Source: Escherichia coli (GTDB lineage Bacteria; Pseudomonadota; Gammaproteobacteria; Enterobacterales; Enterobacteriaceae). Taken from it: a DNA stretch of 64,000 nt. The stretch lies in the NCBI RefSeq assembly GCF_029227855.1, contig NZ_CP074356.1; one strand, written 5' to 3'. Made by a program: the position numbers and the translations under genes. Below the pieces are notes generated by a model. The model did no database searches. It had not been told where the DNA came from and was given only the letters and a program-made list of their open reading frames with translations. Below are positions 5,416 through 24,875 of this stretch, one piece after another (positions within the stretch are counted from its first letter, which is position 1; each line of letters opens with the position of its first letter).

Positions 5416-6696
5416 TTAATTTTTCATTGCTTCGTTATGGGGCATGGTTGGGGCAAACTCGCTTAACTGTGTATTTAACAAAGCTACCTGTGCATTATTG
5501 TTTTCAGACATCCATTTTCCGTATACCTGAAATACCATTTGCGCATCTGCATGGCCCATCTGGTTTGCTATAAATGCCGGGTTAGCACCAGCTGTCAGCG
5601 ACCAGCAGGCATAAGTATGTCTCGACTGATATGATTTTCGATGGCGGAGTCCGGCACGTTTTATCGCTGCGTCCCACATCTGCCTTATTGAGTCAACGGT
5701 AAAATGGTCACCATAATTTTTTACTCTCGCTGACACTTCAGGTTGAAAAACAAAGGTGCATTTTTGTTTTTCTGTTCTGCCATACTCTCTGAGGTGAACA
5801 TCAATGATATGCTCTTTGCTCAGTCTCGTTAATGTCATCTGACTCCGGAGAGCGTCGATTGCTGGCTTAATAAGATGAATGACCCGATTGGTTCCCGCCT
5901 GTGTTTTTGGTACCGTGAAACGGTCTTTTGCTAAATTTCTCCTGATCATCATTGTTCCATTTTTCAGATCTATGTCCTCCCATCCAAGTGCACACAGCTC
6001 ACCAGGGCGAACGCCAGTATAAACAGAAACACACCATAAATTTTTTGCTTGCTGATTTCTGCACGCATCGATAAGACGGATAAATTCCTCCCGCGAAAGA
6101 GGATCCGGAATGGTTCTTGATTCCTTTAATGGCGAGATCCCCTTAAACGGATTATCTGGCAGGTAACCGTTATCAACACCAAACTGGAACACGGCGTTAA
6201 GATTTGTCATGTAATTATTTACAGTTACAGCCGATCTCCCTGGTTGTGTAACAATATAGTTACTTTTGGGGATCTGGTATCCAGTCAGTAGCTCTTTACG
6301 AACCTCCAGTAATTTTTCTTTATTAATCGATGAGGCAAGATTTTTTTCACCGATTATGCTCAGGATATTTTTGATGACGGCACGGTATGTGTTGAGTGAT
6401 GTTTTGGCGACTTCAGTTTCTTTCAGTGCCAGAAATTTTTCAGCCAGTTCTTTTATGGTTAAATCTTGTCGGGCCTCACCAAATTTTTCCAGATTGCGTG
6501 AGGAGGGAAACTGTTTTGCATAGTCGAAAACACCAGTTTTTATTGCGTAACAAACAGAGGCGCGTAGTTCACCTGCAACGCGCCTGTTTTTTGCTGTGTC
6601 AGGAACCCCCAGATTTTCCCTGACTCTTACGCCTTTATAAACAAACCAGATACGTAATTTCCCTCCATGGTTTTCCACGCCTGTCGGATATTTCAT
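5416..6696 (-). CDS. int: phage integrase (tyrosine recombinase)
   Basis: ORF 5416-6711; start at ATG 6696 with SD gagagg (MKYPTGVENHGGKLRIWF...); C-terminal catalytic region with RHTYA and terminal Tyr-containing motif. Confidence 0.9.
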   Translation of the reverse strand: MKYPTGVENHGGKLRIWFVYKGVRVRENLGVPDTAKNRRVAGELRASVCYAIKTGVFDYAKQFPSSRNLEKFGEARQDLTIKELAEKFLALKETEVAKTSLNTYRAVIKNILSIIGEKNLASSINKEKLLEVRKELLTGYQIPKSNYIVTQPGRSAVTVNNYMTNLNAVFQFGVDNGYLPDNPFKGISPLKESRTIPDPLSREEFIRLIDACRNQQAKNLWCVSVYTGVRPGELCALGWEDIDLKNGTMMIRRNLAKDRFTVPKTQAGTNRVIHLIKPAIDALRSQMTLTRLSKEHIIDVHLREYGRTEKQKCTFVFQPEVSARVKNYGDHFTVDSIRQMWDAAIKRAGLRHRKSYQSRHTYACWSLTAGANPAFIANQMGHADAQMVFQVYGKWMSENNNAQVALLNTQLSEFAPTMPHNEAMKN

Positions 6697-6730: not shown

Positions 6731-6982
6731 TCAAGTAAGATGACGTCTTGGTCTCGCTGATGCCTGGCGCTCAATCCAGCGATCAATTTCTTCCAGGTTG
6801 TAAAAGCATGGACTGTTATCCCATGGCATACCGTCATGAGCGACATGCTTATATTCCCTTCCTTCCATAAACGATTTTTCCCGGGCCTTTTTTAACGTAC
6901 CTTTTTTTATTCCTTTCAGCGCAATTAACTGCTCTTCGGATACCCATTTGCCGGGAGAGACAATCATGATTACTTCGCTCAT
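6731..6982 (-). CDS. putative excisionase
   Basis: 83-aa ORF immediately upstream of int on the same strand; family assignment not verified. Confidence 0.55.
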   Translation of the reverse strand: MSEVIMIVSPGKWVSEEQLIALKGIKKGTLKKAREKSFMEGREYKHVAHDGMPWDNSPCFYNLEEIDRWIERQASARPRRHLT

Positions 6983-7054: not shown

Positions 7055-9526
7055 TTAAGAATCAGCCTGACTCGGGATCAGTTTTTGCCAGATAACTGAA
7101 ACGTATTTTGCCTGGTAACGGGCGTCATCAAGTGCATTATGCCGCTCACCTTCGAATGGAATAGCCGTTCTGGCATCGAAGTCTATGGCTTTCCCCAGCT
7201 CAACGATTGTGCGTACATCGCGATCGTTGTAGTAACGCCACGGGCAGGGGATCCCCTGCCGTTCGTATGAACGGCGCAAAATCGTGTTGTCGAAGTTGGC
7301 TCCATTTCCCCAGACCTGAACAAAAAATTCACCGGAGTTTTCGTCGATAAATTCCCGCAATTGTAACAGTGCATCATCTAACGGGATTTCATCGGTCATA
7401 ATGGCAGACTGCGCTTCACGTGATTGCTTCAGCCACCATTTAATGACGTCACGATCAATGACTCCGCCAGCAGTATTCAGATCTATGGTCTTGCTAAATT
7501 CCGGTCCCATATCTCCGGTTTGTGGATCGAAAAATATTGCGCCTATTGAGATAATCGGGGCATCAGGATTTTTTCCCATGGTTTCAAGGTCGATCATTAG
7601 ATGGTCACACGTCCTGCTGGTGGATGTGATAACGTGATGACCGTTCACCGTAATTAAGGGATCTGCCGTCTCGCCAGTTTCACTATCGCTGGCGTGGTCC
7701 TGAGCGCTGCCAGCATTCTCCTTGTGTGGATGTTCAGCGCCTTCCATTTTCTCCGAATCGTCTTCCTGAACTTCAACCTGGTTCTTGTCATCGAATGTTT
7801 CCTGGTATGTTGCGTCGCCCATCACCGCACCACATTCAGGGCAGTTGCCGCCGCCGGTCTGACCGTAGGCGGTGCAGATTTTTTCCGCTTCCTGTTGCGC
7901 TACTGGCTCAGGTTGTTTCGTTTCTGGCTCGTTTTGTAACGCATTTGGGCTGTTTTGTTCCGCTTTCTGGTCGTTCTGTTCCGTTTCTTGCTGGTTCTGG
8001 TTCACTGAATCGCGGGTTTCAATCCCCTTCACCCATTTCGGATCATTCGGATCGCTAATCCCTGCAACAAATTCACCACGTGATACAGCAAGCAACTGAT
8101 TGGCGTCAGGCTGGCTGATATTGGCTGCCTGCATAATTTTGTTTACTTCGTCAGCGGTAATTTTTACCGGCTCTGGTTGTGCGGTCGTGTCAGATGCACC
8201 AGTATTTTGTTGTGAACCTGAGTATGTACCGTTTTTGCGGGCGAAATATTCTTCTTTCGTGATTTCAGTAGCCCCGGCAGCCAGCGCCTTATCCAGACCA
8301 GAAAGTTTGTTTGCGCGACCGTATTTTTCGCCATCCTTGTCGGTAAAGAGGAAGTAGAACGGCCCCTCACGCTCTACAGATGGTTCGACTTCCACTTTGC
8401 ATTCAGTTTTTTCGTTGCCCGGAATTGCCGTTTCCACTGCATCAGTTTCTGGTACTGGCGACGAGAGAGTATCAGTTGCGCTCTGATTTGTTCCTTCATC
8501 TTCAAACACGCCCTTTGTAGTCAGGTATTTAGTAATGTATTTGTTCAGTGCCACAGGGTCTTTGTGAATGTCGATCGGACGTTCACGGACAAGGCCAAAA
8601 ATAGTCTGGCGGTCGTAGCGAAGGGCATCAGGCTGTTTGCGCATTGATGCCGAGATACGCTTCCAGTCTTCGCGGTCGTTGTCGATAACTTCATTTTTTG
8701 CCCAGCGATGGATGCTGCCGTCAATGTTTCCGGCATCCACATCACCAGGCCAGAGAGCGTAGGCCAGTTCGTCATCCAGTGTTTTCCATGTCTGCTTGTA
8801 TTCGCGATGAGTGGCAGCAATGACCGGGTTGATTTTTCCTGTTGAATTTTCAGTGTGCTGTTGATTGGCTCTGGCGCGGGCGAGATCAACAACAGACGTG
8901 TATTTTCCGGTTTCCTTGCGTTCATTTTCGCGACGTTTTTTCCAGATGCGCATCTCTGCCTGAATTTCGGGCCATTTAGCTCCAGGATTACATTTATGTT
9001 TAACCCACCCGATGGCATGCAGCTTAAGCTCCGGATACATGGCGTTAACTTCTGGCATTTTCATCAACGCTTCAACGATATGTCCGTCGAATGTTGCCAT
9101 GTCTTCCTGCAACAATTCCTGCGCGCTAATCACCATATCAACGGTGATGTTTTCACATGTGTCGAACTTAACCATGACAGCGTTCTGTACTTCAGGGGCC
9201 AGCTTGTCAAAAGTGACGTTCATCGGATCTGATTCAGTCTCAACCGGGACAAAGGAAGCAGACTCCTCATCCCAGCGGTTTTCCTGCATATATTCAGCAT
9301 CCCAGGAATCGAGGGCAGGGCGGGGTATACCGGGTTTATCCTCGCAAACAAGAAATTTATAAGCGCAGTCCTGAGCAACCGGATAATGTTCCAGGAATTG
9401 CCAGTGAAATTTTGCGCGGGCGCGACGTTCATCACCGGCTTCAATGGCAGTGGCTACAGCGATTGCACCTTCTTCCTTTATTGCCTGTTCGTCCGGAATG
9501 GCGGCGCAAATAAAGACTTTACTCAT
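7055..9526 (-). CDS. phage exonuclease, 823 aa, C-terminal DnaQ-like 3'-5' exonuclease domain
   Basis: C-terminal motifs DLETMG, NGANFD, HNALDDARYQAKY (DEDDh pattern); acidic low-complexity linker in the middle; position corresponds to the exo/recE slot of the early-left operon. Confidence 0.7.
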   Translation of the reverse strand: MSKVFICAAIPDEQAIKEEGAIAVATAIEAGDERRARAKFHWQFLEHYPVAQDCAYKFLVCEDKPGIPRPALDSWDAEYMQENRWDEESASFVPVETESDPMNVTFDKLAPEVQNAVMVKFDTCENITVDMVISAQELLQEDMATFDGHIVEALMKMPEVNAMYPELKLHAIGWVKHKCNPGAKWPEIQAEMRIWKKRRENERKETGKYTSVVDLARARANQQHTENSTGKINPVIAATHREYKQTWKTLDDELAYALWPGDVDAGNIDGSIHRWAKNEVIDNDREDWKRISASMRKQPDALRYDRQTIFGLVRERPIDIHKDPVALNKYITKYLTTKGVFEDEGTNQSATDTLSSPVPETDAVETAIPGNEKTECKVEVEPSVEREGPFYFLFTDKDGEKYGRANKLSGLDKALAAGATEITKEEYFARKNGTYSGSQQNTGASDTTAQPEPVKITADEVNKIMQAANISQPDANQLLAVSRGEFVAGISDPNDPKWVKGIETRDSVNQNQQETEQNDQKAEQNSPNALQNEPETKQPEPVAQQEAEKICTAYGQTGGGNCPECGAVMGDATYQETFDDKNQVEVQEDDSEKMEGAEHPHKENAGSAQDHASDSETGETADPLITVNGHHVITSTSRTCDHLMIDLETMGKNPDAPIISIGAIFFDPQTGDMGPEFSKTIDLNTAGGVIDRDVIKWWLKQSREAQSAIMTDEIPLDDALLQLREFIDENSGEFFVQVWGNGANFDNTILRRSYERQGIPCPWRYYNDRDVRTIVELGKAIDFDARTAIPFEGERHNALDDARYQAKYVSVIWQKLIPSQADS

Positions 9527-9619: not shown

Positions 9620-9820
9620 TTAAAGACCTGCCGGGATTTCGTTATTATCCTGGTGAATAACTTTATCGACAGGGTAACAGTTACCGGGAATTTTCTGTTC
9701 GGTTGCTGCAGTCACACACTCCTGCATTGTCCTGTGAACACTGACTGCAATATCAACTGGTTCTCCGGAAACAAGAAAAACTGTCAGAACAAGTGCAAAT
9801 GCTGTATTCATTGCCAGCAT
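9620..9820 (-). CDS. hypothetical small secreted phage protein
   Basis: ORF with hydrophobic N-terminus MLAMNTAFALVLTVFLVSG; weak RBS; start uncertain. Confidence 0.3.
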   Translation of the reverse strand: MLAMNTAFALVLTVFLVSGEPVDIAVSVHRTMQECVTAATEQKIPGNCYPVDKVIHQDNNEIPAGL

Positions 9821-9996
9821 CCTTTTTGTATCGGACGTAAACGGGCCAGCATTGAAAGAATGCATACTTTATTTAATAGCTCCCGTTCTTGTTTTCTCTT
9901 GTTAATGGCATCTTCAGTAAATACTGGGTTACTGATAGTGACACCAATTTCAAAACAACCTTCAGACGTATTAACGTTTGGTAATAACGTTTTCAT
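9808..9996 (-). CDS. hypothetical early-left phage protein
   Basis: ATG at 9996 (MKTLLPNVNTSEGCFEIG...) preceded by SD gagga with about 7-nt spacer. Confidence 0.4.
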   Translation of the reverse strand: MKTLLPNVNTSEGCFEIGVTISNPVFTEDAINKRKQERELLNKVCILSMLARLRPIQKGCWQ

Positions 9997-10482
9997 TATC
10001 GCGTCCTCAACAATGAATTTTGTGATGCAGTGCCTGGTGCCTCCAGGTGACGTTAACCAGTTAACAATTAACGTCGGATACAGAGAATCCACCCATAACA
10101 CTGTTTTTGGTTTTAACTGTTCCGCGTGCGCTCAGCCGCATTCACCGCATCACAAAATTCACTTTAAAAACGGCGGCAGAGCAGTCACGGAGTAAAACTG
10201 ATACCGCTAAACGTCACCAGAAAATTGATAACAGAGGGCGTTGCAGCGGGGTTGTCACTTAAGCGTATGGTCAACCTGACAACCCGGTGTCCTCAACGGG
10301 GAAGGAATAACCCCGCCATACTTACCGCCGCGCCATTTCGCGGGTTGCCACAACCGGAAGCGCACGGTCGAATTAAATTTAACGACACCGTACAGTGAGA
10401 CGAACTTCGCCGTGCGCTTTCGTGTTGTGTGCCTGCTTTTAACCACGTCAGGCGAGGTGGTATCCTTAAAATCACCACAGTT

Positions 10483-11058
10483 TTAAGGATTCATTAAGCA
10501 ATGTCGCAACCACCAATAAATCCGCTTAAGAACATGAAAATTGATTACTGGTATAAAGCGCTTACAGTTGTTGGCGCTGCGTTGTTTGTCTTTAATGGAA
10601 CGTCTTTTTTTGACAGATATCCCGTTGTTCCATTGGGTTTTTTGTCCTCCGGCATCTTTTTTATTGGTTTGGGGGAGTGGATTAATCACCCTCTCAAAGT
10701 GAGATTTATTGGTCCTGGAGTTTGGACTCGTGGATATAATCGTTCTTCGTGCGCACTCGGTATCATCTTCGACATACTTGGTTGTTTCCTGATTGTTACA
10801 GGAGTCGTCAAGTTCTTCTGATGTAAAACCGCAAATGGGGCACGTAACGGGAATTTTGAAAAGCGTTTCTCCGGGTTCCAGAACAAAATTTTCTGCGGTC
10901 TGATTTTGCTTCTCATATTTGTGCTCCGCGTCATTGTGAGAGCACATTCTTATTCTGAGTGCCTGTTTAAACTCACTGAAGCTGAGAGCTTCTTCGCCTT
11001 CGGCAAGACCTTCGAAGTATTCTTCGTAAGCCTTTTCCATGATTGTGTCGAAATCCAT
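10483..11058 (-). CDS. hypothetical phage protein with zinc-ribbon-like N-terminal half
   Basis: Start ATG 11058 with SD aggtga; N-terminal half MDFDTIMEKAYEEYFEGL... with C-x-H...CPICG motif; C-terminal half fully overlaps a plus-strand ORF in antisense codon register, so one of the two is probably an artefact. Confidence 0.35.
   Translation of the reverse strand: MDFDTIMEKAYEEYFEGLAEGEEALSFSEFKQALRIRMCSHNDAEHKYEKQNQTAENFVLEPGETLFKIPVTCPICGFTSEELDDSCNNQETTKYVEDDTECARRTIISTSPNSRTNKSHFERVINPLPQTNKKDAGGQKTQWNNGISVKKRRSIKDKQRSANNCKRFIPVINFHVLKRIYWWLRHCLMNP
10501..10821 (+). CDS. hypothetical 3-TM membrane protein (possible superinfection-exclusion-like)
   Basis: 106-aa ORF with three clear hydrophobic segments separated by short polar loops; overlaps the minus-strand ORF 10483-11058 in antisense; cannot decide which is real without codon statistics. 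Confidence 0.35.
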   Translation: MSQPPINPLKNMKIDYWYKALTVVGAALFVFNGTSFFDRYPVVPLGFLSSGIFFIGLGEWINHPLKVRFIGPGVWTRGYNRSSCALGIIFDILGCFLIVTGVVKFF

Positions 11059-11059
11059 A

Positions 11060-11215
11060 TCACTCACCTGAGTTTCTTTCCAGCCAGCGACGGGCACCAT
11101 TTTCGGTTTTAAACGTTTTGCTTTTGGTATATGTCATCGCGGTGAACGTACCGTCCTGGTTGGGGAACACGCCACATACCAGAGATTCGCTGTTGCCAAG
11201 ATCGATAGTATCCAT
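11060..11215 (-). CDS. hypothetical small phage protein
   Basis: ORF 11060-11269; likely start MDTIDLGNSE at 11215; stop adjacent to start of downstream gene. Confidence 0.35.
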   Translation of the reverse strand: MDTIDLGNSESLVCGVFPNQDGTFTAMTYTKSKTFKTENGARRWLERNSGE

Positions 11216-11383: not shown

Positions 11384-11791
11384 TTATTTTATTGATTTAT
11401 TTTTACGCGCTTTAAGCATTTCTTCGAAGAGTTTGTTGAAGTTTTCTACTCTTGCGCGCATTTCAGACAGCAAGGCTTCCTGCTCGGAAGATGGAAGAGC
11501 ATCGAATAATTCGATCAATTCTTTGTGGTTGGGAGTTAGCTCTGTTTCCACATGAAGTTCTTGTGCAGGCACTGGTGCCTTGTCTTCGTCACCAAACATT
11601 AGCCATGTAGGTGAGCACTTCAGAGCATCCGCTAAAGCAAACAATCGTTTTCCGACTGGCTGGGTTTCGTCTCTTTCCCATTGTGAAATTGTGACGTGAG
11701 CAACTCCAGCGAGGCGCGCAGCTTCTCGTTGTGTTAAGCGTAATTCTTTTCGTCGCGCCAGAACTCGCTGGCCTAGGGTTCTTGTATCCAT
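11384..11791 (-). CDS. DicA-like HTH (XRE family) prophage repressor
   Basis: 135-aa ORF; HTH LTQREAARLAGVAHVTISQWERDETQP; no peptidase S24 domain; divergent from a Cro/DicC-like gene. Confidence 0.85.
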   Translation of the reverse strand: MDTRTLGQRVLARRKELRLTQREAARLAGVAHVTISQWERDETQPVGKRLFALADALKCSPTWLMFGDEDKAPVPAQELHVETELTPNHKELIELFDALPSSEQEALLSEMRARVENFNKLFEEMLKARKNKSIK

Positions 11792-14587: not shown

Positions 14588-15184
14588 ATGGTTGGTGTTA
14601 CTCAAAGGTCAGGGAATTACTCACGTAATGTGCAGGTGGTTGTCGATTCTAACTCTGTTGATATTATAAAGTCTCCATCGATTTTTATGGATCTTGTTGG
14701 TATTTTAGTTGATTCGAATGTTATTGATCCTCGTACAAACAATGACTACGAGCCATATGATATTGAGAATAAAATAGACTTCAATGATGTTATAAAACAT
14801 AGAGAACGTATTGAAGGGTTCTATCTATATTCTTCGATGATAGATAAAGCGTATGAAACATTAAATGAAAGTATGCCTACTGCTAAGGAAACGGCACTGA
14901 AAAGCATCAATTCACGATATCTTGATTGTCAAGGAGATTTATTGCTTAAACATAGAGAAGCGTATAAGAGCTGCAAGGATGCTCAGGAACGGAATAATTT
15001 AAAGATTCAATTGGTAAGAGAGTTTGCAGATTGGATAATAGACAGTGTAATAGAGCACATCATTAAGAAATGCTTAAATTCTCTTATGGCAATGAATTAC
15101 ACAAGCGAAGAAATCGAATGCCATGCTTCTTTTATCGTTTATCATGCATTCGTAGAGTGTAAGATTCTGGAAAAACCAATATGA
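14588..15184 (+). CDS. hypothetical protein, 198 aa (candidate effector/partner of SMC-like ATPase)
   Basis: ATG 14588 with SD gagg; AT-rich codon usage; stop overlaps next start (ATGA). Confidence 0.6.
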   Translation: MVGVTQRSGNYSRNVQVVVDSNSVDIIKSPSIFMDLVGILVDSNVIDPRTNNDYEPYDIENKIDFNDVIKHRERIEGFYLYSSMIDKAYETLNESMPTAKETALKSINSRYLDCQGDLLLKHREAYKSCKDAQERNNLKIQLVREFADWIIDSVIEHIIKKCLNSLMAMNYTSEEIECHASFIVYHAFVECKILEKPI

Positions 15185-15417
15185 TTATCTCTGATGTAAC
15201 AAAACCAAGCCAAACCTTGTATTACCTGGGAGCTCGGTTATTAGAATGCATGAGTTCAAATGCTTATTCGTATGTTGATATTATAGACTTGTATAATGAA
15301 TTCAAATCTAAAAATAACAACTCTTCATTCACGCAATATATTTACACTTTAAATTGGCTATATTTATTAGGCCTGGTTGATGCTAACGAAAATGGAGATT
15401 TGATATTATGTTTTTGA
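15181..15417 (+). CDS. hypothetical small protein, 78 aa (candidate middle component)
   Basis: Translationally coupled to both neighbours: 4-nt overlap upstream, 10-nt overlap downstream. Confidence 0.5.
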   Translation: MIISDVTKPSQTLYYLGARLLECMSSNAYSYVDIIDLYNEFKSKNNNSSFTQYIYTLNWLYLLGLVDANENGDLILCF

Positions 15418-17132
15418 AACGGCTAATAGTCAGTTCTTTCAGGCTTGGAGTGATTCGTGATATCGAATTTCACATTGGCGTTAATTTGATTATTGACCGA
15501 AACACCTCCAGCAAAGAGCAAACTGGAAATGGTGTGGGAAAAACTACTGTATTAAGAGCTTTAGATTTTTGTTTTGGAGCAGAACAACTGAATTTTTATA
15601 CCGATCCTGAATTCAAGAAAGAAAATTCGGTTATAAAAAATTATTTGATAGAGAACGAGATTGAGTTTTGTTTAATTCTCACAAAAGATTTGAATAATAA
15701 AACTGCACCAGTAATAAAAATTAAGCGTAAAATTACATCTGAGACTAATAAAACGAAGGTTATAGCCTCAATAAATGAAGAGTCCTATACGAAGGCTAAA
15801 GATTTCAACGAGGCTTTAAAAAGAACATTATATCTTGATTCCGCGATAAAACCGACCATACGAGAGATTATGGGACGTGTTATTCGAAATACGCATGACA
15901 AGATGTCGAACGCATTAAAAACGATAAAAATGGGTTCTAATACACAATATGAAACGTTAAATCTGTTTATGTTTGGGTTCGGTAACTCACAGATTCTGGA
16001 TGAAAAACAGTCAGTGACTAAAGCCTATAAACTGGCGAAATCCGATTATGAAGTAATTACTCGCCATCGCTCAAAGAATGCTTTGGAACAAGCTATTGCA
16101 ATTATAAATAGAGATATTATAGCACAAGAAGAGTTAATTTCTAATTTTCAAGTGGCAGACTCTTATAATGATATGCTTGCTGAGTTAAATGAGTTAAAAA
16201 TTAAAATTAGTGAAGTTTCTATCACACTATCATCTTTGGAGTTTAAGCAAAAATTAAACGATAAGGCTATACTAGATCTGGAAAAAAGTCATGAAAATAT
16301 AAATACACTAGATCTACAGAAGTTGTACTTAGAAGCAACTGATCGGTTAGGTAACTTAAACAAAGAGTTTACTGAGCTACTTTCGTTTCATAATAAAATG
16401 CTTGTAAAAAAAGCTGAGTTTATTAGAAAACAAATGCAGCCAGTGCTGCAAGAAATTTCCAAATATAAAGATGAACTAAATAATTTATTGACTCAAGAAT
16501 CAGAGCTTTTAAAGAGTTTGTCTTCGCATGGGACATTGGCAGACCTGCAAATAATGCAAAAAAAATTAAATTCATTATTTGAAGAAAAAGGTGGGCTTGA
16601 AGCTGGACTACTTCAAATCCAAGAGATGGAGAACAACTTTAATATACTGAAAGCAAAGTTTAATGATGTGTCAGATAGATTAAAATCTAAACTTGACGAT
16701 TTTAACAAACGTCTTGCGCTATTCAATTCCTATTTTTCTTTATATACTAAAAAATTATATCAGGATGAATATATTCTTTCCTATAAAGATTCCTCCGGTT
16801 CTTTCGTTTTTACCATTGAACCTTTAGGAACTTTGCTCACATCAGGTAATCAGGGAGAAGGAAAAAAGAAAGCCCAGGTTGCCTCTTTAGATTTTGCCTA
16901 TTTATCTGTCCAGGAGTCTTTAGAAGCCAGAACACCACGTTTTATAGCTCATGATGGAATTGAGGCAATTCATGTAAATCAAATAAATAAGTTATTCGAG
17001 ATAGCTTCGGGGATTAATGGTCAATATATATTGGCTATTCTTAAAGACAAGTTGGAGAATATTGATCAAGACTTCATCAATAATAGTGTTGTGCTTGAGC
17101 TTGGGGAGGACGATAAGTTTTTTAGGCTTTAA
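15408..17132 (+). CDS. SMC-like ABC-type ATPase with long coiled-coil insert, 574 aa
   Basis: N-terminal RecF/SMC-like head with Walker A TGNGVGKTT (about 15522-15548); roughly 230-aa K/E/L-rich coiled-coil region; C-terminal signature-like SGNQGEG and Walker-B-like RFIAHDG followed by IEAIH. Confidence 0.7.
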   Translation: MFLKRLIVSSFRLGVIRDIEFHIGVNLIIDRNTSSKEQTGNGVGKTTVLRALDFCFGAEQLNFYTDPEFKKENSVIKNYLIENEIEFCLILTKDLNNKTAPVIKIKRKITSETNKTKVIASINEESYTKAKDFNEALKRTLYLDSAIKPTIREIMGRVIRNTHDKMSNALKTIKMGSNTQYETLNLFMFGFGNSQILDEKQSVTKAYKLAKSDYEVITRHRSKNALEQAIAIINRDIIAQEELISNFQVADSYNDMLAELNELKIKISEVSITLSSLEFKQKLNDKAILDLEKSHENINTLDLQKLYLEATDRLGNLNKEFTELLSFHNKMLVKKAEFIRKQMQPVLQEISKYKDELNNLLTQESELLKSLSSHGTLADLQIMQKKLNSLFEEKGGLEAGLLQIQEMENNFNILKAKFNDVSDRLKSKLDDFNKRLALFNSYFSLYTKKLYQDEYILSYKDSSGSFVFTIEPLGTLLTSGNQGEGKKKAQVASLDFAYLSVQESLEARTPRFIAHDGIEAIHVNQINKLFEIASGINGQYILAILKDKLENIDQDFINNSVVLELGEDDKFFRL

Positions 17133-18547: not shown

Positions 18548-19597
18548 GTGCGGGTATTACTTCGACCTGTTCTGGTACCGGAACTCGGGCTGGTGGTCGT
18601 TAAGCCGGGCCGTGAATCCATGCCGGTATTCCACAATACCCGGGTACTGGTGGAGCCGGAACCGAAAAGCATGCGTAATCTGCCGTCCGGGGTCGTTCCT
18701 GCCGTTCGCCAGCCGCTGGTGGAAGACAAAACATTGCTGCCGTTTTTCAGTAACGCACGGGTGATTCGTGCTGCTGGTGGTGCTGGTGCATTGTCTGACT
18801 GGCTGTTGCGCCATATTAAATCCTGCCAGTGGCCACACGGCGATTATCATCACAGCGAAACCGTCATTCACCGTTATGGTACCGGCGCAATGGTGTTGTG
18901 CTGGCACTGCGACAACCAGCTGCGTGACCAGACATCCGAATCACTCGAGCAAGTTGCTCATCAAAACCTGTCAGCATGGATGATTGACGTCATCGGTCAC
19001 GCAATAAGCGGTACGCAGGAGCGTGAATTATCTCTGGCTGAATTATCCTGGTGGGCGGTCCGCAATCAGGTGGCGGACGCGCTACCGGAAGCGGTATTAC
19101 GTCGTTCGCTGGGGTTGCGTGCGGAAAAAATCCGCTCAATGTACCGCGAAAGCGACATCGTACCGGGAGAGCAGACCGCCACCAGCATATTGAAACAGCG
19201 CACAAAAAATCTTGCACCGTTGCCTCACGCCCACCAGCAACAAAACCCATCACAGGAAAAGACGGTGGTAAGCATCACCGTTGATCCAGAGTCTCCGGAA
19301 TCTTTCATGAAGCTGCCTAAACGTCACCGTTGGGTTAAGGAGAAATACACACGCTGGGTTAAGACACAGCCGTGTGCTTGCTGCGGGATGCCAGCCGACG
19401 ATCCGCATCATCTGATTGGTCACGGGCAGGGCGGAATGGGAACCAAAGCACATGATCTCTTTGTGTTGCCTTTGTGCAGAAAGCATCACGACGAGTTGCA
19501 TACGGATACCGTGGCATTTGAAGAGAAGTATGGCTCCCAACTGGAGCTGATTTTTCGATTTATCGATCGCGCGCTGGCAATTGGTGTGCTGGCCTAA
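18548..19597 (+). CDS. ydfU: YdfU-like DUF968 protein with C-terminal HNH-like Cys/His motifs
   Basis: 349-aa ORF with GTG start and SD ggagg; C-terminal [18 protein letters not shown]...CRKHHDELH; same length and position as remembered Qin YdfU. Confidence 0.8.
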
Positions 19598-19614
19598 TTT
19601 TGTGGAGTAAGTTG

Positions 19615-19992
19615 ATGCGTGATATTCAGATGGTTCTTGAGCGTTGGGGGGCATGGGCGGCTAATAATCATGAAGATGTGACCTGGTCGTCCATTGCCGC
19701 TGGTTTTAAGGGATTAATTCCTTCAAAAGTAAGATCTCGTCCGCAATGCTGTGACGATGACGCGATGATCATTTGTGAATGTATGGCTCGCCTGAGAAAA
19801 AACAACAGCGATTTACATGGTTTATTGGTGGACTATTATGTCGGCGGCATGACTTTTATGGCGCTTGCACGTAAGCATGGGCGATCTGATTGTTGGGTTG
19901 GCAGGATGCTCCAGAAAGCTGAGGGCGTAGTGGAGGGCATGCTGATGGTATTGGATCTCCGATTGGAGATGGATGCTGATTGTTCGAAATAA
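19615..19992 (+). CDS. late-gene antitermination protein Q
   Basis: 125-aa [27 protein letters not shown]... typical of small Q antiterminators; followed by terminator. Confidence 0.85.
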
Positions 19993-20090
19993 TTAAAGGA
20001 AAAGTTGCTGTCTGATTGTCATTAGTCTAACATTTTAAATGTTGGAATCGCAACGTAGTTATTATCATATAACAGCTTGTTTCCTGATTT

Positions 20091-20119
20091 AGCCAGCCTC
20101 CCCAAAGGCTGGTTTTTTT
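20091..20119 (+). terminator. rho-independent terminator downstream of Q (tR'-like)
   Basis: Stem ccagcc / ggctgg with loop, followed by TTTTTTT. Confidence 0.55.
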
Positions 20120-20147
20120 CTAATAAGTATCATTTCGGGTAGGGATT

Positions 20148-20672
20148 TTATTGTTTAACCCATAATAATTCATTGACATTGAATCCCAACTTTTGAGCGG
20201 TTCGCACATAGTCTGCTTTTACTTTATCTGGAATAGTTGGGGTCCTTGCCAGAATCCATAGGTATTCTCTGTTCGAACCACTAACAAGAGCATACTTATA
20301 CTCATCATCCAGTTTGATTACATTATAGCCACCATAGAAGGGGCCAAAAAACGAAACCTTCAACGCTGCAGTTTTAGTATCTCCAGTAAAGTATGCTTTA
20401 CCTTCGCTCTCGCTCCATTTATTTTTCGTTGGATCGTATCCACGGTTAAGTACACGAATCCCTCCGTCGTTCCGTTTTCCATAAGTAGCGCTGACCTGTT
20501 CCAGACCACGTTCGAACCGGTTCTCGAGGCGAGCTATTTCATACCATTTTCCGAGGTAGCGGTTGGCGTCAAAATTTGTAATCGGCTGCACACCTTTAGG
20601 TGGTGTCGGGGCCTTACATGCTATAAGAGTGAAAGAGAGTGCAATGCCAGTCAACACAGGCCATAACTTCAT
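20148..20672 (-). CDS. bacterial lipocalin Blc-like outer-membrane lipoprotein
   Basis: ATG 20672 with SD agga; lipobox LIACK; lipocalin motifs NFDANRYLGKWYEIAR and FFGPFYGGYNVI. Confidence 0.85.
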   Translation of the reverse strand: MKLWPVLTGIALSFTLIACKAPTPPKGVQPITNFDANRYLGKWYEIARLENRFERGLEQVSATYGKRNDGGIRVLNRGYDPTKNKWSESEGKAYFTGDTKTAALKVSFFGPFYGGYNVIKLDDEYKYALVSGSNREYLWILARTPTIPDKVKADYVRTAQKLGFNVNELLWVKQ

Positions 20673-20864
20673 AATCAATCCTGTACTTTTGATAGTTGAG
20701 AGTAAGTATGAAAGATAGATGATTACGACCGATCACTTAAAGAACTTTCATACTATATTAGGAATAGTCCATAACAGAAAAATTGTCAGTGATGACGTCA
20801 GAAAGGCAATTTATTCCGTGCACTACACAGTTTATGTGTTAATGAATTAGTCAAGGGGGAGGAT

Positions 20865-21824
20865 ATGATAAAAAAACCTGTGATTGGAATCAGCGGTTGT
20901 TTGGCCGGTTCTGCTGTTCGTTTTGATGGTGGTCACAAAAGAGCTGACTTTTTAATGGACAAATTAGTGGAATGGGTAACATTCAGACCAGTATGTCCGG
21001 AAATGGCTATAGGGCTGCCAGTTCCGCGTCCTGCTCTACGTCTTGTGCGCTCGAAGCAAGGAAATATACGGATGTGTTTCAGCCACGACCAGAATGAGGA
21101 TGTGACAGAGAGAATGACAGAGTTTAGTCGTTCTTATATGCACAAATTAAAGGATGTATCGGGGTTTGTGGTTTGTGCTAAATCTCCCAGCTGTGGCATG
21201 GAGCGCGTGCGTGTCTATGATGAAAATGGTAATCGAGGTCGTAAAGATGGAGTGGGACTATTTACGAGCACTTTGATGGAAAAGTTTTCCTGGCTACCGG
21301 TTGAAGAGGATGGGCGATTACATGATCCAGTGCTTCGTGAGAATTTTGTTGAAAGAGTTTTTGCTTTGCATGAGCTCAATCACCTTTACAAGGAGAAATT
21401 ATCAAGAAGAGAGTTATTAGCTTTTCATAGTCGTTATAAGCTTCAGTTGTTGGCGCATAGTCAGGCAGGCTATAAAGATATGGGACCATTTGTGGCTGCA
21501 ATACACGAGTGGGCGGACCTTGAATCATACTTTGAGGTGTATCGTGATAAGCTGATGGCGATTCTCAGAAAACCTGCATCACGTAAAAATCACACGAATG
21601 TGCTGATGCATATACAGGGGTATTTTAGTAATTACTTAAGTACACGCCAGCGTAAAGAGTTGACCGAGGTTATACTTAACTATCGCTTTGGCACATTGCC
21701 TCTTCTTGCGCCGTTGACTCTGCTGAAGCATTATCTGGGTGAGTATCCTAATGATTACTTGCTTACACAGAATTACTTCGATCCCTATCCGGAAGAACTG
21801 GCTCTAAGACTGATGGTGAATTAA
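20865..21824 (+). CDS. DUF523 (TudS-like) plus DUF1722 (YbgA-like) fusion protein
   Basis: 319-aa ORF with SD agggggagg; N-terminal Cys-containing GISGCLAG...CPEM...SPSCG; C-terminal half YbgA-like. Confidence 0.75.
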   Translation: MIKKPVIGISGCLAGSAVRFDGGHKRADFLMDKLVEWVTFRPVCPEMAIGLPVPRPALRLVRSKQGNIRMCFSHDQNEDVTERMTEFSRSYMHKLKDVSGFVVCAKSPSCGMERVRVYDENGNRGRKDGVGLFTSTLMEKFSWLPVEEDGRLHDPVLRENFVERVFALHELNHLYKEKLSRRELLAFHSRYKLQLLAHSQAGYKDMGPFVAAIHEWADLESYFEVYRDKLMAILRKPASRKNHTNVLMHIQGYFSNYLSTRQRKELTEVILNYRFGTLPLLAPLTLLKHYLGEYPNDYLLTQNYFDPYPEELALRLMVN

Positions 21825-22230
21825 CTGTATGCGATATCATCTGAAAGTGATGAGTTCCTGTATGCAGGATATTTACAATCGTAAAAACTACACTATGATA
21901 CCCATAGTGTCAGTTTGTATAAAAATCCTGTTCACGCTGAAGAAAACATTGAGATGCAATTTAATGTTGGTAAACATACCAGCCCCAAAAGATTTTATTC
22001 AATCTGTTTTTATATGAAGATATTTCAAGTGAATATTAAGAGTATATAATATTATTATTGCACGCAGCTATTATAATATAACAGATTAGTTTAATGATTT
22101 GTTTTTTGTGAGTTAAACACATGGTTTTATAGTTGTGATGCAATGAGATTTTCCTTATTGTTGAACTGGCGAATATTGATTTTCCACCTATACTTACCTG
22201 GTGTAACCCCAGTGATATCAGGTGGATAAT

Positions 22231-22944
22231 ATGCCATACATATGTTCTGTCATTTTGGTGTTGAACTCGTTTGGTGTCCGAATTGGTAAAGAAGATATTT
22301 TGTTTAAAAAAGGAAGTGCTGTCCTCATCGAATACAATTTAAAAGATCTTTTTTCGTCAAATACAGATCATCTAATGATCGTAGATGTTGAGGAGAAAAC
22401 AGTTAATGATTTCTTTAAAAACTACACACTCTCACCTTTTTCTGTAAGAAGGTTTTATCCGGCATACTTGATAGTAGAATGTGAAGGTTTTTCTTTGTTA
22501 AAGAACTTGGTTGCATGCTTGAATTGTGATAGCAAAACCGTGGATGTGGTTAGAAATCAAATATCACTTGCATGTCTTGCTGTCTTATCTTCAGAGAAAA
22601 TAGTGCAAAGTTTTTTGTTCGGAAGTCTTAATAGCTTAGGTTGTAAAGTTAAGGCTATTATTCACTCGGATATCTCAGCGTCATGGAGACTTTGTGATAT
22701 ATCTTCAAGATTATATATGAGCGAGAGTTTGTTAAAAAGAAAATTAAAAGACGAAGGGGTATCGTTTAGTAGATTAATTCTTGAAGAACGAATGATGATG
22801 GCGCAAAGATTATTAATTTACAGTAACCATACTGTCGGCAAGGTGGCGGGAATATGCGGGTATGACAATGCATCATATTTTGTAAGTGTTTTTAGAAGAT
22901 ATTTTGGTGTGCCTCCGCACCAATATTTATCAAGATTTTCTTAG
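22231..22944 (+). CDS. AraC-family transcriptional regulator (AppY-like)
   Basis: C-terminal AraC HTH (GKVAGICGYDNASYFVSVFRRYFGVPPHQY); N-terminal half resembles remembered AppY; AT-rich. Confidence 0.8.
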   Translation: MPYICSVILVLNSFGVRIGKEDILFKKGSAVLIEYNLKDLFSSNTDHLMIVDVEEKTVNDFFKNYTLSPFSVRRFYPAYLIVECEGFSLLKNLVACLNCDSKTVDVVRNQISLACLAVLSSEKIVQSFLFGSLNSLGCKVKAIIHSDISASWRLCDISSRLYMSESLLKRKLKDEGVSFSRLILEERMMMAQRLLIYSNHTVGKVAGICGYDNASYFVSVFRRYFGVPPHQYLSRFS

Positions 22945-23135
22945 AAGATATGATGTGATGGCATTTTATAAAGTTGTTTTTTTGAAGTGTAAGATTATAC
23001 GATATTTTTAGCTACGCCAGAATAATTGCTGGCGTTTTTCTTTTTGAATAGATGTTCGGGCCTTACGCTAATGTAATTTTTTTCCTTCTTCGAACCAAAC
23101 CGTGTACACCATCCGTTATCTGCGGAGGTGAGGCT

Positions 23136-23351
23136 ATGAAATCCATGGATAAGTTAACAACGGGCATCGCCTACGGCACCTCTGCAGGCAGTGCTGGCTA
23201 CTGGTTTTTACAGTTGCTCGATAAAGTCACGCCCTCACAGTGGGCGGCAATAGGTGTATTGGGTAGTCTGGTATTTGGCATGCTGACGTATCTGACTAAC
23301 CTTTATTTCAAGATTAAAGAAGACAGGCGTAAGGCTGAGAGAGGAGAGTAA
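23136..23351 (+). CDS. class II holin
   Basis: 71-aa product [73 protein letters not shown] ggaggtgagg. Confidence 0.85.
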
Positions 23352-23355
23352 TCCA

Positions 23356-23700
23356 ATGACTCAAGTATACGAACTGGTTGTGAAAGGAGTCCGTAATTTT
23401 GAGAATAAAGTTGCGGTAACTTTAGCCTTACAGGACAAAGAACGCTTTGACGGTGAGATTTTTGACCTTGATATCACTATGGATCGTGTTGAAGGTGCTG
23501 CACTGGAGTTTTATGAGGCAGCAGCCAGAAGGAGAATCAGACAGGTGTTCTTGGATGTTGCTGCCGGGTTATGTGAAGGGGATGAGCAGTCGCCGGAAAA
23601 GCGCCCCATAATTTTAGAGGCGCAGAATGTGTGGATAACCTACAAAGGAAAGCTACCAGGAAGAATTACTGGTTATCTGAAGACTCCGCCGGAATGTTAA
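23356..23700 (+). CDS. YdfR-like lysis-cassette protein (DUF1327)
   Basis: 114-aa ORF MTQVYELVVKGVRNFENKVAVTLALQDKERFDGEIFDLD... resembles remembered YdfR. Confidence 0.7.
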   Translation: MTQVYELVVKGVRNFENKVAVTLALQDKERFDGEIFDLDITMDRVEGAALEFYEAAARRRIRQVFLDVAAGLCEGDEQSPEKRPIILEAQNVWITYKGKLPGRITGYLKTPPEC

Positions 23701-23938
23701 TTTTAACAGCATATTTCTCTTCCAGTAATGCCACCAGCCACTTGAAGGAATTTTGTTGTTCCTGGGACCATTTGGGGCTGTGTGATTCAAGCTGGAGCGA
23801 TGCCAGTGTTGGTTGCATTTGTTCCCTGGGAATTGACAATGCCAGATATGAAAATGCGACAGTAAGGGCATTAACATCATCCCGAAGCCTGGAAATGCAG
23901 TCGAGCAACTCCTGAAGAGAAATGGTGTTATTGTCCAT
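23666..23938 (-). CDS. hypothetical protein encoded antisense within lysis cassette
   Basis: 90-aa minus-strand ORF with good RBS (gagga, 6-nt spacer); acidic, protein-like composition. Confidence 0.45.
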   Translation of the reverse strand: MDNNTISLQELLDCISRLRDDVNALTVAFSYLALSIPREQMQPTLASLQLESHSPKWSQEQQNSFKWLVALLEEKYAVKINIPAESSDNQ

Positions 23939-24043
23939 AAATAATCCTCTTGATTGTATTTACCTGTTCTCCGCCTGATTCAACAGGTTGGGACAGATAA
24001 ACATATCCTGGGTTCAGAAATCGATAAATCCTGATAAATATCC

Positions 24044-24577
24044 ATGAACGTAAAAGTCAAATACGGCCTGTCGGCTGCCGTTCTGGCGCTGATTGGTGCT
24101 GGTGCATCTGCTCCCCAGATACTTGACCAGTTTCTGGACGAAAAAGAAGGTAACCACACAATGGCATACCGTGATGGTTCCGGCATATGGACCATCTGTC
24201 GGGGTGCCACAGTGGTGGATGGAAAACCCGTTTTTCCCAATATGAAACTGTCGAAGGAAAAATGCGACCAGGTTAACGCTATTGAGCGTGATAAGGCTCT
24301 GGCATGGGTGGAGCGCAATATTAAAGTACCACTGACCGAACCACAAAAAGCGGGTATCGCGTCATTTTGTCCCTATAACATTGGCCCCGGTAAGTGTTTT
24401 CCGTCGACGTTTTATAAACGGCTGAATGCTGGTGATCGTAAAGGTGCATGCGAGGCGATTCGCTGGTGGATTAAGGACAGGGGGCGTGATTGCCGCATTC
24501 GTTCAAATAACTGTTACGGTCAGGTTATTCGTCGTGATCAGGAGAGCGCGTTAGTGTGCTGGGGGATCGACAGATAA
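24044..24577 (+). CDS. phage lysozyme (endolysin) with signal-anchor-like N-terminus
   Basis: 177-aa ORF; hydrophobic N-terminal segment (LSAAVLALIGAGASA) consistent with a signal-anchor-release endolysin; lysozyme family assigned by position after the holin and resemblance to remembered prophage lysozymes. Confidence 0.85.
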   Translation: MNVKVKYGLSAAVLALIGAGASAPQILDQFLDEKEGNHTMAYRDGSGIWTICRGATVVDGKPVFPNMKLSKEKCDQVNAIERDKALAWVERNIKVPLTEPQKAGIASFCPYNIGPGKCFPSTFYKRLNAGDRKGACEAIRWWIKDRGRDCRIRSNNCYGQVIRRDQESALVCWGIDR

Positions 24578-24875
24578 GCAGAATATTTCTCTGAAAAATG
24601 ACGTTGGCCAACGCGAGTGGATAACACGATATTCGTCATAAATGAATTGAAGTAGTGAATAAGAGCAGAACCCCCGATTGCGCGAACAGTCGGGTTTTTT
24701 GTGTTTCCTGACTCCGGAAAAGCCAAAGGAGAAAGTGTGTTTGATTTTAGCAAACTGATTCGGGAGATTCGAACTATGGTTGAAAAATTATCCACCTGGA
24801 AATTCATTCTTTTCTGGCTGGTGTTTGCGATTATGGCCTCCGGTTATTTCATTGCTCAGATACGCTGGTGGTGAA

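Follow-up and report, generated by a model that had tools for sequence, protein, structure and literature searches.

The locus studied here raises the question of what a 3′-5′ exonuclease does in the recombination module of a lambdoid prophage that appears to have no annealing protein to work with. DnaQ-like nucleases have been noted in lambdoid Rec modules; such 3′-5′ nucleases usually inhibit recombination, and their role in a phage module has been called 'curious' (PMC12315714). Since a 3′-5′ exonuclease removes the 3′ tails used by RecA and by annealing proteins, a pro-recombination role is not obvious. A preliminary description of the window (the whole 64-kb stretch of Escherichia coli DNA that was analysed) had placed an 823-aa exonuclease at positions 7055-9526, with DEDDh-type motifs in its C-terminal domain and no recognisable annealing partner. 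The ORF is indeed present, and it is the same ORF as WP_001615240.1, named 'exonuclease' in the PGAP annotation of a 100%-identical genome. The protein and PHROG 2082 match end to end. The gene and its nuclease domain lie as follows.

7055..9526, minus strand: exonuclease gene, 823 aa, ATG start, from the ORF list.
7088..7603, minus strand: DEDDh 3′-5′ exonuclease domain, aa 642-813, PF16473 (DexA/Rv2179c family).

The sole strong domain match of the 823-aa protein was to PF16473 (Rv2179c-like 3′-5′ exonuclease), with an E value of 6e-66 and 221.9 bits against a Pfam gathering cut-off of 27, residues 642-813 covering model positions 2-177 of 177; PF00929 (RNase_T) matched the C-terminal domain weakly. 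The DEDDh catalytic set is complete, consisting of five residues: D646 and E648 (in DLET), D746 (in NFD), and H796 and D801 (in HNALDD). In a pairwise alignment, D646, E648 and D746 pair with D7, E9 and D119 of DexA; the last motif was misplaced in the automatic alignment, and HNALDD was paired with HDSIHD of DexA by eye. The PD-(D/E)XK nuclease of RecE (residues 600-866) used as a phmmer query had no match in the window and left P0121, a close representative of the 823-aa protein, unmatched, while 12 other family members were matched. Domain annotation of the whole protein thus found no RecE-type nuclease, in agreement with the earlier view that this is neither the lambda-Exo nor the RecE fold, and the name 'exodeoxyribonuclease VIII', which databases often give to the gene, is incorrect as regards the nuclease domain. 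Whether the substrate is DNA or RNA does not follow from the DEDDh fold, and it was an exoribonuclease that gave the Pfam family its name.

The remainder of the protein is made up of the following parts.

8837..9526, minus strand: N-terminal module, aa 1-230, Pfam YdfE_N type, with alpha/beta and helical subdomains.
8492..8824, minus strand: helical module, aa 235-345, Pfam YdfE_C type, common to RecE proteins.
8027..8350, minus strand: two small conserved mid modules, aa 393-450 and aa 451-500.
7607..8026, minus strand: acidic low-complexity linker, aa 501-640, common to RecE, with acidic charge and composition.
7913-7996: degenerate 21-bp tandem repeat, four copies, inside the linker.
7832-7876, minus strand: Cys knuckle, aa 551-565, inside the linker.

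Outside its nuclease domain, the protein is related to RecE. The RecE model NF007259 of NCBIfam covers no more than residues 238-626, with profile positions 261-603 of 877, and scores 268.3 bits, below the curated equivalog cut-off of 1269, and BLASTP aligns residues 262-626 with residues 278-592 of K-12 RecE (E 1e-56). Within this stretch, residues 262-336 of the YdfE_C module, for which the AF2 pLDDT is above 90, pair with RecE residues 278-351 in K-12 and 295-368 in Rac-SA53. From about residue 480 on, identity to RecE is roughly 70%; for Rac-SA53 RecE it amounts to 69% over residues 474-626 and, in the DNA, to 84.7% over positions 7702-8074. The homology ends just before the nuclease domain of RecE, which we take from the published RecE structure to start near residue 606, and this implies that the protein is a RecE chimera with a swapped nuclease cassette. 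The alignments show that the YdfE_C module and the linker and knuckle region share homology with the two thirds of Rac RecE that lie outside its nuclease, and that the whole protein is a mosaic, in which a YdfE_N plus YdfE_C scaffold and Cys-knuckle acidic linkers are followed by a DEDDh domain replacing the RecE nuclease. The preliminary description was therefore right that the nuclease is not that of RecE, but it missed that the N-terminal three quarters are RecE-related.

The 'acidic disordered linker' of that description stands as far as charge and composition are concerned: residues 346-392, 501-548 and 571-640 carry net charges of -7, -8 and -13, and disorder-promoting residues make up 67-81% of them. 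The region is not featureless, however, as it holds conserved modules, the Cys knuckle and the RecE homology. By phmmer, both mid modules, of which the one at aa 451-500 includes ISDPNDPKWVKGI, are present in family members with differing C-terminal cassettes. The knuckle reads CTAY...CPEC in the present allele against a family consensus of CTAC...CPDC, so that one of four cysteines is lost.

We then compared the cassettes carried by this family. In a set of 150 family representatives, DEDDh, RecE-nuclease and Rad52-like C-termini were each found with both N-terminal types, and phmmer found the YdfE_C module with either N-terminal type and every C-terminal cassette. Three cassettes are thus borne by a common scaffold: the nuclease of RecE, with recT as the next gene; a DEDDh domain without a partner gene; and a Rad52-fold annealing domain. 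Where the nuclease is that of RecE, recT comes next; where it is of the DEDDh type, xis and int are directly next, in four separate contexts. The identity of the Rad52-like cassette comes from fold comparison and sub-threshold Pfam hits, its profile having no match when compared with the PDB by sequence. This exchange of nuclease and annealase cassettes is a clear case of domain-level mosaicism inside a single phage gene.

The prophage, which lies at rspB, is intact and Qin-like, with the order repressor-ydfA-DicF-dicB-ydfD-exonuclease-xis-int. The neighbours of the exonuclease gene are listed in the order of their coordinates.

5416-6696, minus strand: integrase (Pfam, PGAP).
6731-6982, minus strand: excisionase (Pfam, PGAP).
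9620..9811, minus strand: ydfD (DUF1482), immediately upstream in the same operon (PF07358, E 8e-25; PGAP).
9808..9996, minus strand: dicB, cell-division inhibitor (PF05358, E 3e-37; PGAP).
10171..10222, minus strand: DicF sRNA (Rfam RF00039, 64.8 bits against a gathering score of 48).
10957-11058: ydfB fragment (PGAP).
11060..11215, minus strand: ydfA (DUF1391; PF07151, PGAP).
11384..11791, minus strand: DicA/CI-type repressor, marking the immunity region (HTH_3 and Phage_CI_repr, PGAP).

The exonuclease operon begins just downstream of the repressor gene, and no gene separates the exonuclease from xis and int downstream of it. In dicB, DicF and ydfD we recognise the cell-division and lysis cassette of Qin, which the preliminary description had missed. 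Its statement that no RecT-, Bet- or Erf-like gene is found up to the immunity region held in every search made: Pfam, NCBIfam, PHROG, PGAP and phmmer found none there. HMM and PGAP annotation of the small ORFs yielded ydfD, dicB, the ydfB fragment and ydfA, with no single-strand annealing protein (SSAP) among them, and no domain of the RecT, Redbeta, Erf, Rad52 or Sak type was found in the 823-aa protein or in the neighbouring ORFs. Throughout the prophage, PGAP names neither an annealing protein nor Gam. In six-frame phmmer and hmmsearch searches of the 64-kb window with lambda Exo, Bet, Gam, two RecT proteins, the RecE nuclease domain and the Rad52-like profile, nothing was found at E<=1; Erf, Sak4, Abc2, GamL, MuGam and phage SSB types were covered by the PGAP and Pfam annotation. 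The recombination module of this intact Qin/Tritos-type lambdoid prophage next to rspB consists of the exonuclease gene alone.

Two ORFs of this region were considered separately. A 205-aa ORF (10483-11100, minus strand) was rejected as a hidden annealing protein, having no Pfam or NCBIfam match and being called by PGAP just as the ydfB fragment; its first 48 aa are YdfB, and the remainder lies in a segment of about 520 bp that replaces the K-12 ydfB 3′ end and ydfC. A 106-aa ORF (10501-10821, plus strand) showed no similarity to Rac SieB or to the opposite-strand ORF of locus L007.

An arrangement of this kind has been described as the 'Tritos' type (class B in Table 1 of the cited study), which has a nuclease without an annealing protein, SSB or anti-RecBCD function and is Chi-rich, with Chi sites clustering toward the right end and a top-strand range of 7-21; the nuclease-only arrangement was connected there with dependence on RecBCD and Chi of the host (Zheng et al. 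Genome Res 2025, PMC12315714). The preliminary description had missed this published class too. We therefore looked at the distribution of Chi sites, most of which form one cluster in the prophage.

18589..24871: cluster of eight Chi octamers (five on the plus strand, three on the minus strand), just left of cos, at the right end of the virion map.

In the window as a whole there are 15 Chi sites, where shuffled sequences predict 1.9. The prophage holds nine, six top-strand and three bottom-strand, against 2.2 and 0.76 expected under a Markov-2 model. The final 17% of the virion map contains eight of the nine (KS p 3e-5) and five of the six top-strand sites (KS p 0.004). At one per 5.1 kb, the prophage overall is not richer in Chi sites than the chromosome flanking it (six in 17.8 kb), and five of the nine prophage sites sit in one gene, ydfU. 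A resident prophage might gain Chi sites as the chromosome does.

In the absence of both an annealing protein and a RecBCD inhibitor, the recombination that forms concatemers would be left to the host, and the lack of an annealing partner thus appears to follow from the reliance of this phage type on host RecBCD and Chi. The reading that we consider probable is that the gene encodes the accessory 3′-5′ end-trimming exonuclease of a Qin/Tritos-type RecE-like mosaic, recombination itself being left to RecBCD, Chi and RecA of the host. Upon induction, the gene would be transcribed from the repressor-controlled leftward early operon ydfA-DicF-dicB-ydfD-exo-xis-int, and its product is most likely a Mg-dependent enzyme acting 3′ to 5′ on DNA 3′ ends. 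The scaffold may supply targeting or assembly, as it may do for the RecE nuclease and the Rad52-type annealase in sister proteins; a structure search with the N-terminal scaffold gave no informative match, so that we infer this targeting role. Concatemer-forming recombination would then be handed to RecBCD-Chi-RecA, stimulated by the right-end Chi cluster, and the exonuclease would serve as an accessory end-trimming enzyme and not as one half of a Red- or RecET-like pair.

The exchange of cassettes also allows for a bolder form of this idea, to which we give a low probability. The RecE-like scaffold, with either a YdfE_N or an Exonuc_VIII module, YdfE_C and the Cys knuckle, could be a general delivery platform that brings whichever effector is fused to it, be it a 5′-3′ nuclease, a 3′-5′ nuclease or a Rad52-type annealase, to one common DNA structure or host partner. 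The DEDDh form could then be an active and required part of the Tritos-type lifestyle dependent on Chi and RecBCD; it might, for instance, trim flaps or 3′ ends and in this way allow RecBCD-RecA intermediates to mature to concatemers. If this were true, the gene would be neither a leftover nor a defence gene but part of a third kind of phage recombination module, one assisted by the host.

Apart from a role in recombination, the relatives of the nuclease domain suggest exclusion or defence, a reading that we regard as unlikely. The domain would degrade the 5hmC DNA of superinfecting T-even phages and so protect the lysogen or the induced cell, like EcD ('HREX'), an E. coli DexA homologue that cuts 5hmC DNA and protects against T4 (PMC12153337). 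The only relative found in the PDB by phmmer is 8kel/8ken, a 227-aa 'Exodeoxyribonuclease' (E 9e-6), and this entry, the nearest in sequence among solved structures, is taken as T4 DexA, as the HREX paper indicates (PMC12153337). Escherichia accounts for 38% of bacterial DexA homologues and K-12 has none (PMC12153337), which fits the truncated K-12 ydfE. In a pairwise alignment at about 27% identity, the residue paired with DexA W152 is aromatic (Y766), but the Trp itself is not kept, and D169, which DexA needs for 5hmC recognition, lies in a 14-residue insertion of DexA that is missing here. Moreover, the gene belongs to a repressor-controlled early-left operon and has no promoter-like site of its own strand upstream, so it should be silent in the lysogen. 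PADLOC gave just a generic CRISPR-associated DEDDh hit (E 2.5e-5), and defence leaves unexplained both the RecE-like scaffold and its exchange with the RecE nuclease and the annealase. We also asked whether EcD is the present gene, and this was ruled out, as neither EcD primer given in the paper's supplement matches the window within three mismatches; a scan of viral contigs with the EcD reverse primer returned one unrelated contig.

The DexA family has also been associated with nucleotide supply, one role of T4 DexA, the scavenging of host DNA, being summarised in PMC12153337. By analogy, the present enzyme, which belongs to this family and is expressed with the host-directed dicB, DicF and ydfD, could degrade host or other linear DNA from 3′ ends during lytic growth to release nucleotides, with no role in recombination. 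We find this quite unlikely, since the common scaffold ties the protein to recombination proteins, and an exonuclease alone needs ends, while the operon has no endonuclease partner. Furthermore, lambdoid phages are not known to degrade the host chromosome.

An RNA substrate is very unlikely in our view. The enzyme would in that case trim or degrade RNA 3′ ends, for instance those of phage or host transcripts or of the DicF precursor, and several observations point this way: the Pfam family title is '3′-5′ exoribonuclease Rv2179c-like', some database copies carry the name '3′-5′ exoribonuclease', an sRNA gene lies in the same operon, and prophage-borne DEDDh RNases blocking RNA phages have been reported (PMC13344964). 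However, those family members from phages and E. coli that have been characterised use DNA as their substrate, and the scaffold is common to a dsDNA exonuclease and an ssDNA annealase. To our knowledge, DicF maturation in K-12 does not need the present gene, which is a pseudogene there. As for the reported RNases, the TONDO proteins were obtained in a search that started from ISG20 and was restricted to proteins shorter than 500 aa (PMC13344964).

The arrangement is widespread, as 1463 of 5426 complete E. coli genomes, about a quarter, have 80% or more of the 7.2-kb region. More than a thousand E. coli genomes retain the full-length ORF, and deposited phage genomes such as Tritos, mEp460, HannyBb and PhiR42_1 also carry an intact gene. 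Relative to the mEp460 allele, dN/dS is 0.30 overall, 0.15-0.18 in the folded domains (0.15 for the DEDDh domain) and 0.39 in the linker. That the gene is a functionless remnant, a RecE gene stripped of its nuclease and partner by mosaic recombination whose chimera merely hitch-hikes, is thus highly improbable, in spite of the IS2-truncated K-12 pseudogene, the Cys-to-Tyr change in the knuckle of the present allele and the faster evolution of the linker, given this retention in bacteria and phages, the low dN/dS of the folded domains, the intact catalytic residues and the same architecture having arisen with both N-terminal types.

Among the known systems, recE of Rac, which encodes exonuclease VIII, occupies the same leftward early-operon slot between kil/dicB-type genes and xis-int as the present gene. 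Along the shared stretch (residues 262-626 against 278-592 of RecE), identity reaches about 70% over the last 150 residues, Cys knuckle included. In contrast, RecE has a PD-(D/E)XK 5′-3′ nuclease and a PF06630 N-terminus where the present protein has a DEDDh 3′-5′ domain and YdfE_N, and no recT lies next to the present gene, which is followed by xis and int. Knowing that the RecE scaffold here carries a 3′-5′ DEDDh cassette and lacks an annealing partner should guard against reading such prophages as sources of RecET-type recombineering functions.

In K-12 Qin, ydfE equals residues 1-256 at 96% identity and follows dicB-ydfD at the same site next to rspB, but it is an annotated pseudogene cut by IS2, without the linker and the exonuclease domain. 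The present gene is the intact form of this pseudogene; our literature search on YdfE of Qin found nothing functional. With T4 DexA and EcD, the protein shares the PF16473-type DEDDh family and identical catalytic residues, at about 27% identity to T4-like DexA, yet DexA and EcD are small proteins consisting of little else, while the present domain forms the C-terminal end of a RecE-like protein of 823 aa. Rv2179c of M. tuberculosis, the founder of PF16473, is a stand-alone cellular exoribonuclease. The domain fits the family model almost end to end; Rv2179c was not recovered by the phmmer search of the PDB with the 823-aa protein, and a literature search on Rv2179c together with prophage found nothing.

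In phage Tritos itself the genes stand in the same order, with 92.4% DNA identity between the two exonuclease genes. The features of its type are found again here, namely a nuclease gene in the early-left operon, no annealing protein, SSB or anti-RecBCD gene found, and clustering of Chi sites toward the right end with a top-strand minimum of four; six top-strand sites are present here, just under the published 7-21. Unlike Tritos, the present copy is a resident prophage and not an isolated phage. In summary, the prophage fits the Tritos type, a kind of arrangement already known, and this ties these prophages to the lambdoid phages that depend on host RecBCD and Chi. As both Tritos and mEp460 exist as phage isolates, they offer a simple system for studying the role of a 3′-5′ exonuclease in a phage recombination module.

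The preliminary description had placed an 823-aa exonuclease at the following position, with a DEDDh domain instead of a RecE or lambda-Exo nuclease, and both points were borne out.

7055-9526, minus strand: 'exonuclease' ORF, 823 aa, ATG start

PGAP, the NCBI pipeline, calls the identical ORF (labelled 'exonuclease', WP_001615240.1) in E. coli WP2-W18-ESBL-08, which shows 100% identity to the window over the 7.2 kb tested. The single strong Pfam match of the protein was PF16473 ('3'-5' exoribonuclease Rv2179c-like', residues 642-813, E 6e-66); RNase_T, the general DEDDh family, also matched, below the Pfam threshold. All five DEDDh catalytic residues are kept: D646 and E648 (DLET), D746 (NFD), and H796 and D801 (HNALDD). 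The sole solved relative by sequence is a 227-aa 'Exodeoxyribonuclease' (8kel/8ken, E 9e-6), which, as the HREX paper indicates, is T4 DexA (PMC12153337). The folded domains are under purifying selection, with a dN/dS against the allele of phage mEp460 of 0.15-0.18, compared to 0.39 in the linker.

Judging from its sequence, the 823-aa protein is a RecE scaffold in which the nuclease cassette has been exchanged, a point that the preliminary description missed. The NCBI RecE model NF007259 covers residues 238-626 (profile positions 261-603 of 877) with a score of 268 bits, far under the 1269-bit cut-off, and BLASTP aligned residues 262-626 with K-12 RecE 278-592, the identity reaching about 70% over the last 150 aligned residues, Cys knuckle included. 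This similarity ends just ahead of the nuclease domain of RecE, which in the crystallised RecE fragment begins at about residue 606. At the DNA level, recE of the prophage Rac-SA53 is 84.7% identical to 7702-8074 (the linker) only. The linker, previously described as acidic and disordered, is indeed acidic and of low complexity by charge and composition, with net charges of -7 (residues 346-392), -8 (501-548) and -13 (571-640). The Cys knuckle (aa 551-565, window 7832-7876) reads CTAY...CPEC in this allele, and CTAC...CPDC, with four Cys, in 30 other family members; RecE is also four-Cys. The Tyr at aa 554 (C554Y) therefore removes one putative zinc ligand from an otherwise intact copy. The Q/E/N-rich part of the linker is encoded by four degenerate copies of a 21-bp tandem repeat (71% matches, window 7913-7996), which suggests that linker length changes, up and down, through repeat slippage.

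An exhaustive search with residues 1-344 returned 173 representatives among 1.8 billion proteins, a small family, which we dissected by per-module phmmer, assigning Pfam module names. Two N-terminal types occur, YdfE_N, found in the 823-aa protein, and PF06630 'Exonuc_VIII', found in RecE; after either comes a helical YdfE_C module common to both. The DEDDh domain and the RecE nuclease each form the C-terminal cassette of 12 representatives, and another 16 have a third cassette with the motif KKSLTDAxKKALSxLGFSADV. Both N-terminal types combine with each of these three cassettes; modules are shuffled combinatorially within the scaffold family. A fourth C-terminal cassette (P0126 and P0206, both outside the window, PHROG 26058; motif DLLSGRTD, end resembling ...LTIAALHGLCANPA...), matched no family and has no recognisable nuclease or annealase features.

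The proteins with the third cassette include PHROG 2489 sisters, labelled 'exonuclease', which have no nuclease domain and end in a Rad52/Mgm101/Sak-like fold carrying this motif.

Rad52-like sisters, outside the window: P0130, P0131, P0139, P0145, P0153, P0158, P0165, P0179, P0180, P0193, P0205, P0215, P0219, P0227, P0235, P0252
6001-8370 of L010/L011, outside the window: Rad52-like sister locus

These sisters are perhaps annealing proteins with a wrong annotation, and they may coincide in part with the 'RecE-2' proteins, which are without a nuclease domain (PMC12315714).

We also looked at the genes that follow each form. The RecE-nuclease forms of K-12 Rac and Rac-SA53 are followed by recT, and in a YdfE_N-type member with the RecE nuclease, the overlapping downstream ORF belongs to the RecT family (E 2e-36). 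A Sipho_Gp157 gene comes after the Rad52-like form. The DEDDh forms of the window and of phages Tritos and mEp460 are directly followed by xis/int, without an annealing protein, as are three more diverged DEDDh lineages with the other N-terminal type. Among the small ORFs of the window, no annealing-protein family match was found in Pfam, PHROGs or NCBIfam, and over the whole prophage, PGAP names neither an annealing protein nor a Gam-type inhibitor. The 64-kb window was also translated in six frames and scanned by phmmer/hmmsearch; the queries (lambda Exo, Bet and Gam, two RecT, the RecE nuclease domain, Sipho_Gp157 and a Rad52-like profile) matched no segment at E<=1. Since all these searches were empty, the earlier observation of a missing annealing partner stands: the 823-aa protein has no RecE-type nuclease, and no small ORF matched an SSAP. 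What was described is accurate, and the reading given to it is supported.

The lambdoid prophage in the window is intact and lies at the rspB site, in K-12 the home of the defective Qin prophage. The IS2-truncated ydfE pseudogene of K-12 corresponds to residues 1-256 of the 823-aa protein (96% identity).

11384-11791, minus strand: DicA/CI-type repressor, start point for the leftward gene order
10171-10222, minus strand: DicF sRNA (Rfam, 64.8 bits)

Leftward from the repressor, the minus strand carries ydfA (DUF1391), a ydfB fragment, DicF, dicB, ydfD (DUF1482), the 823-aa gene, xis and int. As no promoter-like site was seen upstream of the 823-aa gene on its own strand, we infer, as the simplest reading, that it belongs to the leftward early operon under repressor control. 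A 205-aa ORF (10483-11100) was rejected as an annealing protein: it is YdfB fused to an unrelated replacement segment of ~520 bp and matches no family. This segment (10441-10960) stands in for the ydfB 3' end and ydfC of K-12 Qin. It contains a plus-strand 106-aa ORF (10501-10821), without PGAP annotation, that by eye, having about three hydrophobic stretches, resembles a small membrane protein; it occupies the position of Rac sieB, and no similarity was found on comparison with SieB. After the replication genes lies an 'ABC-three component system' gene set (14588-17132), a candidate anti-phage defence that includes a DUF2326 protein and is low in G+C (0.35-0.38).

Upon induction, the 823-aa gene would be expressed from the early-left operon, and its product is predicted to act as a 3'-5' exonuclease on DNA ends, because its characterised relatives DexA and EcD, the E. 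coli DexA homologue, act on DNA and the other cargoes of the scaffold are DNA-recombination domains. Labour would be divided, with host RecBCD-Chi-RecA responsible for strand exchange and the 823-aa enzyme for end trimming. The work on EcD, the 'HREX' of PMC12153337, suggests instead an anti-T-even exclusion nuclease; however, the operon context is repressed, the DexA residues for 5hmC recognition appear not to be conserved in the 823-aa protein, and EcD is encoded by another gene. Three further readings were rated lower: a nuclease that scavenges nucleotides, an RNase, and a remnant without function.

The gene is already catalogued (RefSeq 'exonuclease', PHROG 2082, Pfam YdfE_N, YdfE_C and Rv2179c-like), and the arrangement is very common: of 5426 complete E. 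coli genomes, 1463 contain 80% or more of the 7.2-kb region. Many phage and PHROGs records name homologues 'exodeoxyribonuclease VIII' or 'exonuclease VIII, ds DNA exonuclease', although their nuclease domain differs from exonuclease VIII in fold and polarity. The label was apparently carried over from the common non-nuclease region; Pfam PF06630 'Exonuc_VIII' spans just the N-terminal 200 residues of RecE, not its nuclease. The nuclease-only, Chi-rich module type was also previously described. Added here are the domain-level reading of a RecE scaffold with an exchanged nuclease cassette, evidence that sister proteins join a Rad52-fold annealase to this scaffold, and the right-end Chi cluster, confirmed for the window's prophage.

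The window contains 15 Chi octamers, compared to 1.9 expected from shuffles. The prophage (about 5250-51440) has six on the top strand and three on the bottom strand (second-order Markov expectation, 2.2 and 0.76). Eight of these nine fall within the final 17% of the virion map, immediately left of cos (KS p 3e-5 for all sites, 0.004 for top-strand sites), and roughly 24 kb of structural genes have none, confirming a right-end cluster. Overall, the Chi density of the prophage is not above that of the flanking chromosome, and Chi may be gained passively in a resident prophage. Moreover, five of the nine sites (three plus, two minus) fall within 650 bp (18589-19238) of one gene, ydfU (DUF968), by far the densest group in the window.

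From a survey of 325 lambdoid genomes, Zheng, Casjens, Davidson, Amundsen and Smith (Genome Res 2025, PMC12315714) propose that lambdoid phages lacking a recombination system of their own gather Chi and exploit host RecBCD. DnaQ-like 3'-5' nucleases are present in lambdoid Rec modules and 'curiously, usually inhibit homologous recombination' (PMC12315714). Their 'Tritos' functional type (Table 1, four phages) has a nuclease and no annealing protein, SSB or anti-RecBCD, with 7-21 top-strand Chi and right-end clustering in three of the four phages. Like the window, Tritos has the layout int-xis-exo-ydfD-dicB-DicF-...-cI, and its exonuclease gene shares 92.4% DNA identity with the 7055-9526 gene.
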